From the IMG/VR virus record IMGVR_UViG_3300045988_036782, positions 1 to 5,698 of that record: a stretch of 5,698 bases of DNA; one strand, 5' to 3'. The position numbers were made by a program, and so were the translations under genes. Position 1 is the first letter of the stretch; each line of letters begins with the position of its first letter. The notes below the pieces were generated by a model. It was not told where the DNA came from. It ran no database searches and was given only the letters and a program-made list of their open reading frames with translations. Shown piece by piece: positions 1 through 5,698 of this stretch. The DNA comes from a virus.

Positions 1-55
1 CAGCTGGCAGAGGCCGTCAGAAGCAGCAGCGCTCAGACCTCGACCACCAGAGAAA
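1..55. repeat. Terminal redundancy (left copy), identical to 5644-5698; signature of a circular molecule assembled with overlap
   Basis: Base-by-base comparison: cagctggcagaggccgtcagaagcagcagcgctcagacctcgaccaccagagaaa occurs at both 1-55 and 5644-5698. Confidence 0.97.
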
Positions 56-132
56 GCACCGACAGCAAACAGGTCAACGTAAGCGGTGAACTGTCCGGGG
101 AATGGACGAACAAAAAAGACCGCAGAAGATAG
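1..132 (+). CDS. C-terminal end of VP2 (DNA pilot/minor capsid protein), continuing from 4849-5643 on the circle; stop TAG at 130-132
   Basis: Frame 1 is open from base 1 (QLAEAVRSSSAQTSTTRESTDSKQVNVSGELSGEWTNKKDRRR*). Base 1 equals 5644, which is a codon start in the VP2 frame, so the ORF closes to 308 aa. Confidence 0.85.
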   Translation, partial: QLAEAVRSSSAQTSTTRESTDSKQVNVSGELSGEWTNKKDRRR

Positions 133-161
133 TTGACAAACACAGAAAAGAGGTGTATATT
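133..161 (+). promoter_or_regulatory. Sigma70-type promoter P1: TTGACA (133-138), 17-nt spacer, TATATT (156-161)
   Basis: Perfect -35 hexamer, optimal 17-nt spacer and a 5/6 match in the -10 hexamer. It starts directly after the VP2 stop and lies about 40 nt upstream of the RHH gene and its AGGAGG ribosome-binding site (RBS). Confidence 0.7.
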
Positions 162-171
162 ATGAGTGTAC
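152..171 (+). promoter_or_regulatory. Two direct GTGTA boxes (153-157, 166-170) 13 nt apart, overlapping and following the P1 -10; candidate operator
   Basis: The two sites read GGTGTAT and AGTGTAC. The same box sits at the same offset from the -10 hexamer in P2. Confidence 0.45.
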
Positions 172-202
172 TAATCACACACTTGGCTACAGGAGGATAA
201 CC

Positions 203-415
203 ATGAGAAGTCAAATCACAAAACGATTCAATATCAACCTGACGGAGAAAGAACAGGCAGCACTGGAAAACCTGAAAAAAGAATATGCAAACCGAAACTG
301 GAAAGCAAACACTTCAGACATCATCCGAGACGCTATCGTATACTACAGCGAAAAGATGACGGACTATAAAATTGCAGCAGAGGCAATCAGCGAAGAGGAA
401 GACTTGCCCTTCTAA
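203..415 (+). CDS. Ribbon-helix-helix (CopG/Arc/MetJ-type) DNA-binding protein, 70 aa
   Basis: AGGAGG at 191-196, 6 nt before the ATG. The N-terminus KRFNINLTEKEQAALENLKKEYA...TSDIIRDAIVYY fits the RHH pattern: a basic residue plus an alternating beta-strand, helix 1, a loop, then helix 2. The C-terminal tail is acidic. Confidence 0.72.
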   Translation: MRSQITKRFNINLTEKEQAALENLKKEYANRNWKANTSDIIRDAIVYYSEKMTDYKIAAEAISEEEDLPF

Positions 416-420
416 GAGAC

Positions 421-448
421 GATTTTGCCGGGGAGACCCGGCCAAATC
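421..448 (+). repeat. Hairpin: GATTTTGCCGGG / GAGA loop / CCCGGCCAAATC (12-bp stem, one T-C mismatch)
   Basis: Read directly from the sequence. It starts 6 nt after the RHH stop. No adjacent T-tract, so it is not a canonical intrinsic terminator. Confidence 0.6.
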
Positions 449-495
449 TGCAACATTTATCCATAGGTTTTTTTGAGAAAATGCTAAATTTTGTG

Positions 496-540
496 TCAGT
501 GGGCCCCTATAACATCAAGAGGGTTATAGGGGCCCACTGA
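496..540 (+). repeat. Perfect 18-bp inverted repeat with a 9-nt loop (TCAGTGGGCCCCTATAAC / atcaagagg / GTTATAGGGGCCCACTGA)
   Basis: The arms 496-513 and 523-540 are exact reverse complements. It ends 21 nt upstream of the rep ATG and overlaps the start of the GAGGAAAGG Shine-Dalgarno (SD)-like tract. Confidence 0.9.
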
Positions 541-561
541 GGAAAGGCGCAGCGAAACTAT

Positions 562-1671
562 ATGTCATGTACGAGACCGCTCGTCAGGATACCGACAAGC
601 GACGGTGATTTCCGCGTAGTGAGCCTAAAAGGATACTTAAGCCACAGCGGAAAAAACCTCGAATTTATCGCAGACAAAGAGCGTCAAGATCTGAACGAGA
701 AAAAAATCAAAGAGCTGCTGAAAGCTCAAGAAGCGCAGTTGCTACCATGCGGACAATGCCCGGGATGCAAAATGGCAGCAGCATCCAGCTGGGCAAACCG
801 AATGGAGCTAGAGCTACCATACCATCAAAATGCGTGGTTCATTACATTTACATACGATGATGACAATATACCATACCGAATGACCTGGGACGAAGGCACA
901 GGCGAAATACTGGTAGAAAATTACAGTCTGCGGTATGAAGATATGCAAAAGTTCTGGAAACGTCTCAGAAGATACTTGGAATATCACAAGATAAACAACG
1001 GAAAACTGATGTACTTCCAGTGTGGTGAATATGGTGGAAAAACACACAGACCGCATTATCATGCGATCGTGTACGACATACCATTCACCAAAGAAGACCT
1101 AAAGGTCTACAAAAAGAAAAACGGCGCTGTATACTACAACGTCGATTGGTTCACAGAATTATGGGGCATGGGCCATGTGGTCATCGCAGCAGCAGAGTGG
1201 AAAGCAATGGCATACACAGCAAGATACACCACAAAAAAGGTATACGGAAAGGAAGGCAAAGAATTTTACAAAGAGCTGGGAATACTACCTGAAAAGTGTA
1301 ACATGAGCACAAGACCAGCAATCGGAGCAAAATATTTTGAAGAACATAGCGAAGAAATCTATGCAAAAGACAAAATCCAGCTGAAGAACGGAAAAGTTTG
1401 CAAACCTCCAAGATACTTTGATAAACTATACGATGCACAGTGTCTTAGAAAACCACTCTCAGACAAAGAGGTAGAAGACATTGAGCTAGTAATAGAAAAA
1501 GCCGAGTCCGATGAGCTCAAAGCAATAAAGAGAAAACGTCGCAAGTTAGCAAACGACGCACTCTTCGCCAAGCTCAAACAGAACAACGGCTTAACCATGC
1601 AAGAATATTATAACAAAGAGGAACAGAAAATACAAGACAGGTTCAAAAAACTCATCCGGGAAGAAATCTAA
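562..1671 (+). CDS. Replication initiator protein VP4 (HUH rolling-circle endonuclease, phiX174 gpA-like), 369 aa
   Basis: Motif 1 FITFTY (838-855). HUH motif PHYHAIVY (HYH at 1054-1062). Catalytic Tyr motif YTARYTTKK (1213-1239). Gokushovirus-typical N-terminus MSCTRP and Cys cluster LPCGQCPGCK. Confidence 0.92.
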   Translation: MSCTRPLVRIPTSDGDFRVVSLKGYLSHSGKNLEFIADKERQDLNEKKIKELLKAQEAQLLPCGQCPGCKMAAASSWANRMELELPYHQNAWFITFTYDDDNIPYRMTWDEGTGEILVENYSLRYEDMQKFWKRLRRYLEYHKINNGKLMYFQCGEYGGKTHRPHYHAIVYDIPFTKEDLKVYKKKNGAVYYNVDWFTELWGMGHVVIAAAEWKAMAYTARYTTKKVYGKEGKEFYKELGILPEKCNMSTRPAIGAKYFEEHSEEIYAKDKIQLKNGKVCKPPRYFDKLYDAQCLRKPLSDKEVEDIELVIEKAESDELKAIKRKRRKLANDALFAKLKQNNGLTMQEYYNKEEQKIQDRFKKLIREEI

Positions 1672-1695
1672 GGAACGGCTAAATAAGGAAATGCA

Positions 1696-1730
1696 GACGG
1701 CGTGACATCGAAAGGCTGCGCCGTCCTTTT
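1696..1730 (+). terminator. Possible intrinsic terminator after rep: GACGGCG (1696-1702) / CGCCGTC (1719-1725), then CTTTT
   Basis: 7-bp GC-rich stem, a 16-nt loop and a short T-tract (1727-1730), 25 nt after the rep stop. Weak by canonical criteria. Confidence 0.4.
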
Positions 1731-1733
1731 CAT

Positions 1734-1750
1734 TCGGCGCACCGCGCCGA
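1734..1750 (+). repeat. Small GC hairpin TCGGCGC / acc / GCGCCGA
   Basis: 7-bp perfect stem with a 3-nt loop. Part of a GC-rich structured island (1696-1760) inside an AT-rich region. Confidence 0.6.
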
Positions 1751-1777
1751 CCGGACGGCCTCAAACTCAAAAAGTGC

Positions 1778-1806
1778 TTGACAAGTGTATGTTTTAAGTG
1801 TATAAT
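1778..1806 (+). promoter_or_regulatory. Sigma70 consensus promoter P2: TTGACA (1778-1783), 17-nt spacer, TATAAT (1801-1806)
   Basis: 12/12 match to the consensus hexamers with the optimal spacer. It lies 28 nt upstream of the ATG at 1834. Confidence 0.82.
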
Positions 1807-1816
1807 AAAGGTGTAG
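1784..1816 (+). promoter_or_regulatory. Three direct GTGTA boxes at 1785, 1798 and 1811 (13-nt register) spanning the spacer, -10 and +1 region of P2; candidate operator
   Basis: The sites read AGTGTAT, AGTGTAT and GGTGTAG. A degenerate fourth copy (GGTGC) sits near 1824. Confidence 0.5.
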
Positions 1817-1833
1817 AAAGGACGGTGCTTAAA

Positions 1834-2016
1834 ATGACCGACATTGAAAAAATCAAAAAGAGCATCCAGAACCAGATAGAACAACAGGAAAGAAACTACT
1901 ACAAAGACCTTAAGAGCAAAGCAAAGCACACAGACGGAACGGAGATGTACAAAGTAGACAACCACAAAATCGAAGCGCTGGAAACAGCACTGAGAATAAT
2001 CGAAATGTATGAATAA
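1834..2016 (+). CDS. Hypothetical 60-aa protein, probably helical, no family recognised
   Basis: ATG at 1834 preceded by AAAGGA (1817-1822). It has its own consensus promoter and a downstream terminator. The track start at 1798 is a GTG inside the promoter -10 region, upstream of the expected transcription start. Confidence 0.6.
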   Translation: MTDIEKIKKSIQNQIEQQERNYYKDLKSKAKHTDGTEMYKVDNHKIEALETALRIIEMYE

Positions 2017-2023
2017 ACCAAAA

Positions 2024-2066
2024 AACGTGAGGTTGACGAAATTCAGCCTTGCGTTTTTTTTTTTTT
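2024..2066 (+). terminator. Rho-independent terminator: extended stem 2024-2036 / 2043-2055 (includes G-U wobbles), then a T13 run (2054-2066)
   Basis: AACGTGAGGTTGA / cgaaat / TCAGCCTTGCGTT followed by 13 consecutive T. It starts 8 nt after the 60-aa ORF stop. Confidence 0.75.
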
Positions 2067-2112
2067 GGTAAAATTGACATAGAGAGCCAGCACCACAAAA
2101 CGAAAGGAGAAA

Positions 2113-2130
2113 AGCACTGCCTCCAGTGCT
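2113..2130 (+). repeat. Hairpin AGCACTG / cctc / CAGTGCT in the leader of the late gene block
   Basis: 7-bp perfect stem with a 4-nt loop, read directly. Confidence 0.6.
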
Positions 2131-2185
2131 GGCGATCTGTGCTTCAAACCATTTACACAAATCTGAAAAGAAAGGAGGTGCTGCC

Positions 2186-2290
2186 ATGATCACTATCAAA
2201 GACGTAAAGGGTATCTTTAATCAACTGCGCAAGATTTTGGCCATGCTGGATAAAATTTACCACACACTCAACCTAAATAAGGAGGAATAA
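2186..2290 (+). CDS. Hypothetical 34-aa protein (MITIKDVKGIFNQLRKILAMLDKIYHTLNLNKEE)
   Basis: Strong RBS AAAGGAGGTG (2171-2180), 5 nt before the ATG. The stop TAA (2288-2290) is 1 nt before the next ATG, suggesting translational coupling. Below the track length cutoff. Confidence 0.5.
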   Translation: MITIKDVKGIFNQLRKILAMLDKIYHTLNLNKEE

Positions 2291-2291
2291 T

Positions 2292-2411
2292 ATGGCACAT
2301 CGTATGCCGGTCAACCCGAAAAAGGACAAGCGAGTGTTTACCAACACCGCGAAGAAAACCAAGAAGATCAACGTCAATCCGAAGCCGTCGAGGGGCGGGA
2401 TCCGACTGTAA
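2292..2411 (+). CDS. Small basic DNA-binding/packaging protein, J/VP8 (ORF8)-like, 39 aa
   Basis: MAHRMPVNPKKDKRVFTNTAKKTKKINVNPKPSRGGIRL has 12 K/R in 39 residues. The C-terminal RGGIRL resembles the RGG-basic tail of gokushovirus ORF8 peptides such as SpV4 ORF8. RBS AAGGAGGA at 2279-2286. Confidence 0.7.
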   Translation: MAHRMPVNPKKDKRVFTNTAKKTKKINVNPKPSRGGIRL

Positions 2412-2423
2412 AGGAGAAACAAT

Positions 2424-2507
2424 ATGGTAGACATCCTGCAGAGCACAGCAATCGTGCTCATCGCCGCATACATCATCATGAACGAGATCAGAAATTGGAG
2501 GAAGTAA
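2424..2507 (+). CDS. 27-aa single-pass transmembrane peptide (MVDILQSTAIVLIAAYIIMNEIRNWRK)
   Basis: RBS AAGGAGA (2411-2417), 6 nt before the ATG. A hydrophobic core is followed by a basic tail. The stop TAA (2505-2507) is 1 nt before the next ATG. Confidence 0.5.
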   Translation: MVDILQSTAIVLIAAYIIMNEIRNWRK

Positions 2508-2508
2508 G

Positions 2509-2772
2509 ATGGAATATCAGGTTTACGCAATCAAGGATGAACTGGCAGGAACCTTCGGCAATCTCATGGTAGTCAACGAGAAGGTGGCCGATCGGACGAT
2601 GAAGTGGATGGCCCAGGAGATGGAGAAGGCCGACTGCGAGGATAAACGAGTCTATCTGCTGGGCAGCTACGACAACGAAACCGGACTGATCAGACCGGAG
2701 CAGATGCCGCATCTGAGCTACAATCTCGAGCTGATGAAAAAGGAGCAGACGAATGGGAGTCAGAATCTTTAA
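2509..2772 (+). CDS. VP5-like conserved gokushovirus non-structural protein, 87 aa
   Basis: RBS GGAGG (2496-2500). The N-terminus YAIKDELAGTFGNLMVV and the later YLLGSYDNETGLI match the pattern I recall for this small gokushovirus family (x-Y/F-x-I-x-D-x-K-A ... L-x-x-G-x-F/Y-D-x-x-T-G). It occupies the syntenic position before VP3. Confidence 0.6.
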   Translation: MEYQVYAIKDELAGTFGNLMVVNEKVADRTMKWMAQEMEKADCEDKRVYLLGSYDNETGLIRPEQMPHLSYNLELMKKEQTNGSQNL

Positions 2773-3250
2773 ACCCTACGAGGACGAAAAACCTGTTGCG
2801 CTGCCGAACGAACCGGGAAACCGGTATGAACCGGAGTACAAAGAGCGCTATGATGACCGCGGCCAACCGTACCTTGAAAAGGTCGGTGAGGTGGACACCT
2901 ACGAAAAAATCCAGAGTTACAAAGACGAATGCGACGTTATGGCAATCCTGAGCCGGTACGCTGCCGGAGACGAGAGCGTTTTGGCAAAACCGGGCTGGTA
3001 CATCGATACGAGCCGTCTGCCGCAGACCTATACCGAGTATATGAACCTGATGAACGAGAGGCGGGAAGAGTTTAACCAGCTGCCACTGAGCATCCGTCAG
3101 GCATTCGGCATGAACTTCGAAAACTGGATAGCAACAGCCGGTGAGCAGGAATGGCTGGATAAGATGGGCATCAAAATTCAGCAGAATGAACAAAAGAAGG
3201 ACGATGCTGCCATTGAGACTGTTCTGCAGAAAGGAGAAAATAAGGAATGA
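2753..3250 (+). CDS. Internal scaffolding protein VP3 (Chlamy_scaf-like), 165 aa
   Basis: RBS GGAG (2742-2745). Size, position immediately upstream of VP1, and motifs (DTYEKIQSYKDECDVMAILSRYAAGDESVL; acidic/charged C-terminus) are typical of gokushovirus VP3. Overlaps the upstream ORF by 20 nt and VP1 by ATGA. Confidence 0.8.
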   Translation: MGVRIFKPYEDEKPVALPNEPGNRYEPEYKERYDDRGQPYLEKVGEVDTYEKIQSYKDECDVMAILSRYAAGDESVLAKPGWYIDTSRLPQTYTEYMNLMNERREEFNQLPLSIRQAFGMNFENWIATAGEQEWLDKMGIKIQQNEQKKDDAAIETVLQKGENKE

Positions 3251-4836
3251 ACCGCAACGCTGAACAGCACTATTCTCAGGTGCCTCATGCAAACGTACCG
3301 CGAGCAAGGTTCAAAAGGGACTTTTCGCTCCTGACCACGATGAACGAAGGCGATCTCGTACCGATCTACTGTGATGAGGTGTTGCCGGCTGATACGGCAA
3401 AGATCGACCTGAATGCGCTGATGCGCATGAGTACGCCGCTGTATCCTGTTATGGATAACTGTTACTGTGATTTCTACTTCTTCTTCATTCCCGCACGTCT
3501 GCTCTGGGAGCACTTCGAAAACCTGATGGGCCAGAACGACTCTACCTTCTGGGCAGAGACCACGGAGTACACGACTCCGAAGACAACTGCACCAGAAGGC
3601 GGGTGGAACGTGGGAACGCTGGCAGATTACTTCGGCATACCGACCGGAGTAGCAAACCTTCAGGTGAACTCACTGCCGTTCCGCGCCTATGCCAAAGTGT
3701 GGAACGAATGGTTTAGAGACGAAAACCTGCAGCAGCCTGTCACGATGAGCAAGACGGACGCAACGACCACAGGCAGCAATACCGGCACGAAACTCACAGA
3801 CGCCGAAGCGGGCGGGCTGCCGCTCAAAGTGTGCAAGTACAAGGATTACTTCACGAGCTGCCTGCCGAGCCCGCAAAAGGGCGAAGCTGTAAAGTTGCCG
3901 ATGAGCGGAAACGCACCGGTGCTGGCATACCCCAAAGCAAACCGCGAAACTCCCGAAAATGGAAAATATCCTCAGGGTGGAATCAGCAGCTTGGAAAGCT
4001 ACCCGGCACTGATGGGTGTAGTAGGAACAACACCGACAGGAACGGCATACCTCGGCGCGAGACTCGACAAGATAACCGCAGCAACCATCAACGAGCTCAG
4101 ACAGGCCATCGCAGTGCAGCACATCTTGGAGCGTGACGCACGAACCGGAAGCCGGTACAAAGAATACCTTCAGGGAGCGTGGGGCGTGACGAGTCCTGAT
4201 GCACGTCTCGACCGATCAGAATACATCGGCGGCTACAGACTACCGATCAACATCAATCAGGTCATCCAGACCTCGGCGACCGACACGACGAGCCCGCAGG
4301 GCAACACGGCAGCGTTCAGCATGACGACCATGTCCCGGAACATGGCTACCTACTCGGCAACCGAACACGGCTTTATCCTCGGTCTGGCAGCAGTACGAGT
4401 TGATCACAGCTATCAGCAGGGCCTGTCTCGTATGTGGACGCGAAGCACTCGCTTTTCGTACTACGACCCGATGCTAGCAAACCTGGGGGAACAGGCGATT
4501 CTTAATCAGGAGATCTATGCACAAGGCACCGCACAGGACGAAGAAGTCTTTGGCTATCAGGAAGCCTGGGCCGATTACAGATACCGCACCAACATGATCA
4601 CCGGAGAAATGCGCAGCACCTACTCTAAGACTCTGGAGGCATGGCACTACGCGGACAAATACACAGAGCTGCCGAAGCTCTCCAGCGACTGGATCAAAGA
4701 AGGTACCGAAAACATCGACCGCACGATTGCAGTGCAGAGCGAAAACAGCCGTCAGTTTATCTGCAACTTTTATTTCGACCAGACATGGACGCGGGCAATG
4801 CCGATCTACAGCCTGCCGGGCCTTAATACGATCTAA
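3247..4836 (+). CDS. Major capsid protein VP1 (Microviridae F protein family), 529 aa
   Basis: Hallmark N-terminus (PRARFKRDFSLLTTMNEGDLVPIYCDEVLPADT), TINELRQAIAVQHILERDARTGSRYKEYLQGAWGV, and C-terminus FDQTWTRAMPIYSLPG. Start overlaps the VP3 stop (ATGA at 3247-3250). Confidence 0.96.
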   Translation: MNRNAEQHYSQVPHANVPRARFKRDFSLLTTMNEGDLVPIYCDEVLPADTAKIDLNALMRMSTPLYPVMDNCYCDFYFFFIPARLLWEHFENLMGQNDSTFWAETTEYTTPKTTAPEGGWNVGTLADYFGIPTGVANLQVNSLPFRAYAKVWNEWFRDENLQQPVTMSKTDATTTGSNTGTKLTDAEAGGLPLKVCKYKDYFTSCLPSPQKGEAVKLPMSGNAPVLAYPKANRETPENGKYPQGGISSLESYPALMGVVGTTPTGTAYLGARLDKITAATINELRQAIAVQHILERDARTGSRYKEYLQGAWGVTSPDARLDRSEYIGGYRLPININQVIQTSATDTTSPQGNTAAFSMTTMSRNMATYSATEHGFILGLAAVRVDHSYQQGLSRMWTRSTRFSYYDPMLANLGEQAILNQEIYAQGTAQDEEVFGYQEAWADYRYRTNMITGEMRSTYSKTLEAWHYADKYTELPKLSSDWIKEGTENIDRTIAVQSENSRQFICNFYFDQTWTRAMPIYSLPGLNTI

Positions 4837-4848
4837 GGGGGTGCAGCA

Positions 4849-5698
4849 ATGTCACTCACCTTGATGGGCCTGATCAAAGGCGGTCTGACTCTGGCAAGCA
4901 CGTTAGCCAGCATCTACAGCACCATCAAAGGCAGCACTTCGAGCGCACGACAGCAAGGCACTATGCAAAACACTGTCCAGAGCGGCACGACGATGGGAAC
5001 GACCGCACAGGATACTACAAGCACAGGCGGCAGCACTCAGACCGGCAACACAGGAGCACTGGGAAATCTACTGTCAACAGCACTCGGCACGCCGACCGGG
5101 AACAACGCAGGAGCAGCCGCAAACTTTAACGCCGGACAGGTGCAGACAGCCAACAATCTGCAAAACGGTATGTGGAGCCTGGGCAACGTCATCAACCTGG
5201 GAAGTATGCTGGCGTCCAACGCAATGAGTGCAGCAAGCCAAAGCAGCGCAATGCGGTACAACTCCAAAGAGGCCAAAGCTCAAAGAGACTGGCAAGAGCG
5301 TATGAGCAGCACCAGCTACCAGAGAGGCGTGGCAGACCTCAAAGCAGCAGGGCTCAATCCGGTACTGGCAGCATACAACGGCTTTGGAGCACAGACACCG
5401 TCAGGCGGGTACGGAAGCCTGGGCGGGGGTCAGACCTTCGGTCATACTCAGGCTATGGCAATACCGACGGCAAAAAATGCAACCATGCAAGCCATGTACG
5501 ATTATGGCAACAACACAGCTCAAATCGTAGAGAACTATCAAAACGCCATCAACAGCGCAAAACAATCGTCGGACTACCGGACAGCCGAACACCTTGAACA
5601 GATGCAGCAGCAGAGCGTAAGCAGCAGCGCTCAGACCGTGGGCCAGCTGGCAGAGGCCGTCAGAAGCAGCAGCGCTCAGACCTCGACCACCAGAGAAA
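4849..5698 (+). CDS. DNA pilot/minor capsid protein VP2 (H-like); open to the window end and completed by 56-132 on the circle (308 aa in total)
   Basis: RBS GGGGGTG (4837-4843), 5 nt before the ATG at 4849. Hydrophobic N-terminus, then a low-complexity G/T/S/Q/N region. Conserved gokushovirus VP2 motif WQERMSSTSYQRGVADLKAAGLNPVLA (about 5290-5370). Missing from the track because there is no in-window stop. Confidence 0.88.
   Translation, partial: MSLTLMGLIKGGLTLASTLASIYSTIKGSTSSARQQGTMQNTVQSGTTMGTTAQDTTSTGGSTQTGNTGALGNLLSTALGTPTGNNAGAAANFNAGQVQTANNLQNGMWSLGNVINLGSMLASNAMSAASQSSAMRYNSKEAKAQRDWQERMSSTSYQRGVADLKAAGLNPVLAAYNGFGAQTPSGGYGSLGGGQTFGHTQAMAIPTAKNATMQAMYDYGNNTAQIVENYQNAINSAKQSSDYRTAEHLEQMQQQSVSSSAQTVGQLAEAVRSSSAQTSTTRE
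5644..5698. repeat. Terminal redundancy (right copy), identical to 1-55
   Basis: Exact 55/55 match to the window start. Confidence 0.97.

Follow-up and report, generated by a model that had tools for sequence, protein, structure and literature searches.

What does a small gene encoding a putative ribbon-helix-helix (RHH) protein do directly upstream of the replication initiator gene of a microvirus? To our knowledge, microviruses are the textbook phages without dedicated regulators. The stretch of DNA analysed here (hereafter the window) comprises positions 1–5,698 of the IMG/VR record IMGVR_UViG_3300045988_036782, and in it a 70-aa open reading frame (ORF) at 203–415 stands between VP2, which runs from 4850 across the junction to 82, and rep (562–1671), the gene of the Rep/VP4 HUH initiator. 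The window is a circular gokushovirus genome, whose true length is 5643 nt because bases 1–55 are identical to bases 5644–5698; its + strand carries all of its genes, and the nearest GenBank record is Human gut gokushovirus KX513873 (89.6% identity). An earlier note on this DNA had likened the pair of genes to the copG-repB operon of rolling-circle plasmids of the pMV158 family. The explanation we favour, to which we give about an even chance, is that a dimeric RHH DNA-binding protein heads a self-contained replication module under negative feedback, and that a tail resembling that of SSB, the protein that binds single-stranded DNA, links it to host proteins.

The ORF at 203–415 is a genuine gene under purifying selection. 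It is preceded by a Shine-Dalgarno sequence (AGGAGGA, 191–197) that is kept in relatives, and its product has 62 homologues with 55–96% identity, nearly all of them on contigs of about 5.6 kb. The gene is present in 38 complete IMG/VR circles. A search by Rep clade yielded 54 genomes; the gene precedes rep in every one of them, and the order is VP2, RHH gene, rep in each genome of the clade that was examined. The ratio of non-synonymous to synonymous polymorphism (pN/pS) is 0.21 in the 70-aa class; for the first 20 codons, taken across all classes, it is 0.29. A spurious ORF is ruled out because of this ratio of 0.21 together with the conservation across the family, and the position claimed in the earlier note, directly upstream of rep and in the same orientation, is borne out. 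The family is a small one; among 1.84 billion representative proteins, it forms 41 clusters at 50% identity. Five GenBank genomes contain the gene (KX513873, MG945186, MG945797, MG945569 and MG945373), which is annotated in none of them, and our literature search found no report of RHH or CopG in connection with microviruses.

Comparisons of sequence and predicted structure consistently, though sub-threshold in each case, indicate that the 70-aa protein has the RHH fold. The expected layout is present: a strand, KRFNINLT, in which polar and hydrophobic residues alternate, a helix at residues 15–30, the turn NTS, a second helix at residues 37–53, and a disordered tail. The invariant core of the family reads KR-x-N-x-N-L-T … SDIIRDAI, and R8, N10 and N12, at least 90% conserved across the family, are likely the DNA-reading residues. 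When a 42-sequence family profile was compared with PDB sequences, the top ranks were taken by TTHA0139, CopG, ORF56 and ParD, whereas a shallow profile had returned only noise; hhalign aligned the family with CopG over CopG residues 2–42, that is, strand, helix A and helix B (probability 68%, P 4.9e-5). The AlphaFold2 monomer model, built from a 42-sequence alignment, has a predicted local distance difference test (pLDDT) score of 81, with an extended N-terminus, helices at 15–30 and 37–53 and a low-confidence tail, and the extended N-terminus fits a strand expected to pair only in the dimer. This model replaced an earlier one from 25 sequences (pLDDT 62), for which Foldseek was uninformative. 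Foldseek places RHH proteins at the top of the PDB matches (CdbA, NikR with a root-mean-square deviation of 2.5–2.8 Å, and ParD2), and an Arthrobacter phage RHH protein was matched in BFVD with a probability of 0.91. Weak NCBIfam matches include the ORF56 copy-control and aCcr1 models.

Set against this assignment is the fact that no single fold test reached a curated threshold. The Foldseek E-values against other proteins are all 0.14 or worse, and the match to RHH_1 (PF01402) that the earlier note had led us to expect was found, but at 13.9 bits (E 0.053) against a cut-off of 20.5. Among the 42 family members, 14 match PF01402 at E < 0.1 (best E 1.1e-4), other matches being scattered singletons. 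The RHH identity proposed in that note is therefore carried by the convergence of profile and structure evidence, with each individual test falling short.

The region in front of the gene is better conserved than the DNA upstream of it. A sigma-70 scan of the genome returned 8 sites versus 4.1 ± 2.0 in shuffles, and the two best, both on the + strand, are P2 (1778–1806, 12/12 matches to the consensus) and P1 (TTGACA-17 nt-TATATT, 133–161, 11/12). In nearly all of the 38 IMG/VR relatives, and also in L161, L176 and L184, the distance from P1 to the RHH ATG is about 70 nt. The promoter stays in place in 44 genomes, and it does so even in relatives whose RHH protein is only ~45% identical. Among relatives, the consensus of P1 is TTGACA-aanacAgAAAaGAGGTG-TATAtT-ATGaGTGTAcnAATCaCACACtT, and alignment columns from −35 to −10 have a mean identity of 0.88, those of the following 28 nt one of 0.85; the value is 0.47 for the preceding 60 nt, where the variable C-terminus of VP2 is encoded. 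A 32-aa ORF at 102–200 overlaps P1 and was set aside, the simplest reading being a by-product of conserved promoter and leader DNA. Within 416–561, there is no + strand promoter of at least 9/12, no terminator-like site and no minus-strand promoter; over the whole genome, the only sigma-70-like site on the minus strand lies at 2314–2287, and the spacer contains no antisense-RNA promoter. Two claims of the earlier note, a near-consensus promoter belonging to the RHH gene and no separate one for rep, are upheld by these scans.

P1 is overlapped by operator-like repeats on the + strand (140–183), which consist of ACACA at 140–144, GTGTA at 153–157 and 166–170, and an inverted ACAC(T) at 177–183. 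The two GTGTA copies are in 13-nt phase and overlap the −10 element and the predicted +1, and the outer A-T pair of the AGTGT/ACACT palindrome becomes G-C in relatives. Similar repeats recur at P2, where GTGTA occurs at 1785, 1798 and 1811, again in 13-nt phase, so that promoter and repeats together span 1778–1815 on the + strand; P1 and P2 have GGTG-TATAWT-AnrGGTGTA in common. Relatives that have P2 show the architecture GGTG-TATAAT-AAAGGTGTA, often with the same GGTGTA…ACACC palindrome. Of the 39 genomes scanned, 22 have P2 with a score of at least 11/12, and in the other 17 no P2 of that score was found. Five of the eight + strand copies of GTGTA in the window sit in P1 and P2 at 13-nt spacing, and the promoters of at least 10/12 in seven RHH-less gokushoviruses did not show the GTGTA architecture. 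These repeats are good circumstantial evidence that the RHH protein acts on both P1 and P2, and because the same operator-like repeats are found at P2, its likely regulon is wider than rep.

How the gene came to this place is suggested by its absence elsewhere. Dulem viruses 202 and 206 and chicken microvirus mg7_10 are the closest relatives that have no RHH gene; their gap between VP2 and rep (91–146 nt) contains no gene and no promoter, only a hairpin, which agrees with the earlier note's statement that this junction holds no gene in classical gokushoviruses. It looks as if the RHH gene and P1 had been inserted between VP2 and an older origin-rep unit, and this insertion would give an otherwise promoterless rep a dedicated, probably self-limiting promoter. 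The module also moves. The structural genes of MG945569 share 86% nucleotide identity with those of the window, whereas its Rep shares 62% protein identity and its RHH gene is too diverged to be picked up by tblastn; because similar structural genes are here combined with diverged Rep and RHH, we conclude that the module is exchanged as a unit. A portable P1-RHH-origin-rep module would explain the swapping of replication modules among gut gokushoviruses.

The cassette can also carry a second small gene, since L176 (MG945373) has an extra acidic 61-aa ORF at 3769–3954, between P1 and the RHH gene, whose start it overlaps (ATGA). Many RHH proteins are antitoxins, and ParD, CcdA and VapB are among the weak matches of the window protein, so that an ORF in this position could suggest a toxin-antitoxin pair. 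However, the window holds no toxin-like partner, and the neighbour of the RHH gene is Rep in every examined genome. The toxin-antitoxin reading was rejected for want of a partner gene, and we find an antitoxin, or a spurious ORF left by conserved non-coding DNA, hardly credible.

Between the RHH gene and rep, two structures are found. SL1 (423–446) is a small hairpin, GCCGGG-GAGA-CCCGGC, directly 3' of the RHH stop codon; its stem sequence changes in relatives while the pairing is kept, and a similar element exists in the RHH-less Dulem virus 202. The second structure, an 18-bp covarying hairpin, is one of two features that lie beyond the earlier note. It belongs to an origin-like element on the minus strand at 491–540, made up of the flank TTGTGTCA (491–498), a perfect 18-bp stem (496–513/523–540) and a 9-nt loop (514–522). 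The minus strand of the element reads CCTCTTGAT…TGACAC, and the whole of 491–540 on that strand is CCTCTTGATGTTATAGGGGCCCACTGACAC. Folded as single-stranded DNA (ssDNA), the spacer has a z-score of −7.8. Across 22 distinct sequences, compensatory changes affect 14 stem pairs out of 18, pairing is kept in 94% of cells, a value that none of 500 shuffles reached, and G-T pairs occupy 1 of 396 cells; neither the loop TCAAGA (TCTTGA on the minus strand) nor the 5' flank TTGTGTCA varies. The same element was found in 17 gokushovirus lineages, and Dulem viruses 202 and 206 (Rep ~50% identical) and mg7_10 possess it without RHH gene or promoter. Hairpin and GTGTCA flank are equally conserved in these RHH-less relatives and hence independent of RHH.

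We read the hairpin at 496–540 as the nick site of Rep, i.e., as a candidate double-strand origin, on the strength of its likeness to phiX174. The origin of phiX174, CAACTTG^ATATTAATAACACTATAGACCAC (annotated at 4306), resembles the minus strand of window 491–540 in its CTTGAT core and in GAC(C)AC 15–16 nt downstream. In gokushoviruses the core occupies the loop of a covarying intergenic hairpin, whereas in phiX174 it lies inside gene A and in no hairpin; the nick-like motif of the window is also, unlike that of phiX174, on the strand complementary to the genes. A CTTGAT-type nick sequence is shared by rolling-circle origins of the phiX174 and pC194 types, where a two-tyrosine HUH Rep recognises it. 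CTTGAT alone occurs in the window at chance frequency. Other roles for the hairpin were considered and rejected: as an intrinsic terminator it lacks a T-run on either strand, as an RHH operator it is equally present in RHH-less relatives, and a structure acting only in RNA is thought unlikely with 1 of 396 stem cells G-T. A scan of IMG/VR with TTGTGTCA-N12-22-ATCAAGA was too unspecific, the matches listed being mostly unrelated contigs along with 8 microviruses, and a scan of Rfam gave no match. If the reading as a nick site is right, the gokushovirus origin, so far unmapped, has a concrete candidate in this hairpin. A further A-rich lineage of gokushoviruses, represented by L180 (MT121961, 2847–3179) and L182 (KX513876, 5300–5637), has many iteron-like copies of GTTTTCAACA(C) in its VP2–rep gap, upstream of a similar hairpin, and no RHH ORF was seen in the gap.

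Taken together, the module would be ordered P1/operator, RHH gene, SL1, origin-like hairpin and rep. RNA polymerase would start at about 167, transcribe the RHH gene and continue across the spacer, in which there is no U-tract, into rep. The RHH dimer would read the GTGTA repeats via its invariant beta-strand residues R8, N10 and N12, and once bound at −10/+1 of P1 it would shut off the synthesis of both RHH and Rep, a negative feedback analogous to that of CopG at Pcr and of ORF56 on pRN1. Bound at P2, it would also control the P2 accessory cassette.

A number of observations tell against this scheme. The enrichment of GTGTA is modest (13 copies genome-wide versus 7.2 ± 2.7 expected, with 8 of 200 shuffles reaching 13), and common descent confounds the association of GTGTA promoters with RHH, since the RHH-positive genomes together make up a single clade. 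The 13-bp phase is more than a helical turn, an unusual spacing for RHH proteins in cooperative arrays; the conserved palindrome at +1 could alternatively be a 5'-terminal stem-loop of the mRNA; and the stable 18-bp hairpin between the RHH gene and rep could attenuate read-through. DNA binding, repression and co-transcription are steps that we infer from sequence.

If repression is the function, it could also be repression of another kind. The earlier note had suggested regulated, possibly plasmid-like or carrier-state replication, in which the RHH protein would silence the phage and the phage would persist as a plasmid or prophage. The putative operators on both strong promoters would suit such a role, as would one 48-kb metagenome contig, L003 (ENA ERZ27281030 k141_41694), in which a phage of this kind (6174–11856) is joined to ParM-like, DUF5720 and helix-turn-helix (HTH) genes, the junction corresponding to about window position 2095, just after the terminator. 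However, the contig ends in an Illumina adapter (AGATCGGAAGAGCACACGT) and its phage part is exactly one genome minus 92 nt, typical of a mis-join; it is probably one, and because of the adapter end it was discarded as evidence of integration. All other contigs are circles of 5.4–5.8 kb, no integrase, partition gene or dif-like site was found, and relatives of the RHH/Rep clade number 0 in 185,579 species-representative genomes. This part of the earlier proposal is not supported, and a lysogeny or carrier-state repressor is very improbable.

The other feature beyond the earlier note is a motif at the end of the protein. The codons for SEEEDLPF (389–412, + strand) are followed directly by the stop codon, and the protein terminates in AISEEEDLPF, with a pLDDT of ~52 over residues 61–70. 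The C-terminal tip of SSB (SSB-Ct) reads DDDIPF in E. coli, whose counterpart in Gram-positives is DISDDDLPF (PMC5872125, PMC5531588), and it docks many proteins (PMC5872125, PMC5531588, PMC10018359). The window protein agrees with it in closing, after a disordered linker, with an acidic run and then [IL]PF at the very C-terminus; the difference is that its tip is attached to a predicted sequence-specific duplex-DNA-binding fold, whereas that of SSB is attached to an ssDNA binder with an oligonucleotide/oligosaccharide-binding fold. An acidic-[LI]PF terminus occurs in 58 of 135 family members, in at least eight unrelated linker contexts and with different codons. Divergent members, with lengths of 58–114 aa and linkers unlike one another, end in DDLPF, NEDLPF, EEDELPF, DDNLPF, DEDKLPF or DDDDDLPF (twice), and IIDDDDDLPF and EIDDDDDLPF are also seen in relatives. 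Tip-bearing members include P0079, P0080, P0083, P0090, P0093, P0095 and P0097, the last from a gokushovirus of 5.7 kb in which P1 and the VP2-RHH-hairpin-rep order are the same. Our literature search found no natural non-SSB phage protein with an SSB-Ct tip.

The tip suggests a function beyond simple repression. In the feedback module, a tip on the disordered tail would most likely link the regulator, while it is bound to DNA, to host proteins capable of recognising the SSB tail, either replication and repair factors or a ClpXP-type turnover machinery that would make the repressor short-lived. A caution is that more than half of the members have no LPF tip, ending instead in GYTFANEW… or lacking a tail, and the tip is therefore not essential to the core function. 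If the reading is true, an SSB-tip mimic on a duplex-DNA binder would be a new route for a tiny phage into the host SSB interactome.

Such a tip invites the idea that the protein is not chiefly a repressor but a replication adaptor, which would bind at the GTGTA sites or near the hairpin and, through its SSB-like tip, recruit host SSB-interacting proteins such as PriA, DnaE, RecQ, RecJ or RecG, or titrate them away from SSB, thereby promoting complementary-strand priming or protecting displaced ssDNA. This would be in keeping with the conservation of the tip behind unrelated linkers, with the location of the gene in the module of rep, at 80 nt from the origin-like hairpin, and with the Gram-positive SSB ending DISDDDLPF and the many protein contacts made by SSB-Ct (PMC5531588, PMC5872125, PMC10018359). 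On the other hand, the tip is missing from more than half of the family, the conserved candidate sites are on promoters and not on the hairpin, hairpin and GTGTCA flank are just as conserved where there is no RHH gene, which argues that RHH is not needed there, and no partner protein is known. We regard the adaptor as rather unlikely.

The same three terminal residues could instead make the protein a timer. With the terminal LPF acting as a ClpXP degron, repression of P1 and P2 would decay fast and would need continuous synthesis. The last three residues of Streptococcus mutans SsbA, LPF, are reported to be sufficient for degradation by ClpXP (PMC5143411), and labile RHH repressors, such as RelB and other antitoxins, are common (PMC2812701). 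However, the former report also gives LPF recognition as strain-dependent and absent in other bacteria (PMC5143411), and the acidic run before LPF is conserved as well, a better fit to SSB-Ct than to a three-residue degron. A timer repressor is improbable in our judgement.

The orientation of the hairpin is related to base composition. At 4-fold degenerate sites, the coding strand of the window has A 0.31 and T 0.13, an AT skew of +0.41 (relatives +0.37 to +0.68), while phiX174, Chp2, SpV4 and several gut gokushoviruses have a T-rich coding strand with a skew of −0.37 to −0.82. Hairpin orientation was compared in the window plus L177, L178, L179, L181, L183, L186, L188 and L190–L197, and two orientations occur among gokushoviruses. 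Where the hairpin is perfect, 17 of 17 lineages carry the CTTG(A/T)T loop and the TGACAC flank on the T-rich strand, which is the coding strand in nine lineages and the non-coding strand in eight, the clade of the window being among the eight. Exceptions are two IMG/VR genomes of weak skew, L121 and L105, whose coding strand bears the hairpin in imperfect form; the A-rich phiMH2K lacks a hairpin of this kind. Should nicking, displacement and packaging concern the T-rich strand, as they do in phiX174, the clade of the window would package the complement of its genes. The match with the T-rich strand raises the possibility that many gokushoviruses package the antisense strand, on which our literature search found nothing.

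Combining hairpin, strand and tip leads to a bolder picture, in which the RHH protein is a duplex-DNA "SSB-tail decoy" beside the origin that brings host SSB-client proteins to it or withholds them, the apparent nick falls on the non-coding strand, and this clade, along with other A-rich gokushoviruses, displaces and packages the complement of its genes, as negative-sense microviruses would. We put this forward tentatively, as a possibility that may well prove wrong.

The remainder of the window is of gokushovirus type. Rep/VP4 carries an HYH motif and a YTARY two-tyrosine motif and matches PF23343 (E 4.5e-15) and phrog_942 (E 7.8e-98), i.e., it is of the microvirus VP4 type. Downstream of P2, which is bracketed by an inverted repeat (1718–1729/1817–1828), comes a variable accessory ORF (1834–2016, 60 aa from the ATG at 1834), which P2 drives and which differs among relatives, and then the sole intrinsic-terminator-like site on the + strand (2020–2069); the region 1778–2069 looks like a swappable slot for accessory genes. 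It is followed by a 34-aa ORF (2186–2290), a VP8/J-like gene (2292–2411), a hydrophobic 27-aa ORF (2425–2508, MVDILQSTAIVLIAAYIIMNEIRNWRK) with its own Shine-Dalgarno sequence just 5' of VP5, VP5 (2509–2772), VP3 (2753–3250) and VP1 (3247–4836). The 27-aa ORF is possibly a membrane or lysis peptide. A Firmicute host is suggested by the LPF form of the tip, by promoters of the sigma-70/SigA type and by strong Shine-Dalgarno sequences.

Several known systems combine parts of this arrangement. P22 Arc and Mnt and the omega protein of pSM19035 are small RHH repressors that bind repeated short sites overlapping promoters and control more than one transcription unit. They share with the window the small RHH protein, the repeated promoter-overlapping sites and the several promoters. 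They differ in belonging to double-stranded DNA phages or theta plasmids, in using 21-bp palindromes or 7-bp heptads, and in having neither a link to an HUH Rep nor an SSB-like tip. A closer parallel in gene order is the Sulfolobus plasmid pRN1, for which a report describes a CopG-like RHH repressor co-transcribed with the replication protein (PMC4234260). The orf56-orf904 pair likewise joins an RHH gene to a replication gene, and ORF56 (2k9i) and the NCBIfam ORF56 model are among the weak matches of the window protein; pRN1 differs in being archaeal, in that ORF904 is a primase-polymerase/helicase and not an HUH nickase, and in having no SSB-like tail.

In pMV158, CopG is co-transcribed with RepB and, at Pcr, blocks RNA polymerase (PMC2724298). 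Here too, a small RHH gene lies directly upstream of an HUH initiator gene and in the same direction, behind one strong promoter that candidate operators overlap, and the family profile aligns over the whole CopG fold. The differences concern the initiator, which is RepB (Rep_2) in pMV158 and a two-tyrosine Rep of the VP4/phiX174 A type in the window; the double-strand origin, which is upstream of the promoter in pMV158, whereas the origin-like hairpin of the window is between the RHH gene and rep; the antisense RNA II-type promoter, of which the window shows none; the repeats, which in the window recur at a second promoter, P2; and the regulator, which has 45 aa in CopG versus 70 aa with an SSB-like tail in the window. 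The copG-repB likeness drawn in the earlier note is thus right as architecture, though not in Rep type, antisense-RNA promoter or origin position, and it is plausible as mechanism. pMV158 is a plasmid and the element of the window is a virus; if the mechanism applies, plasmid-style feedback control of an HUH initiator would also operate in a virus.

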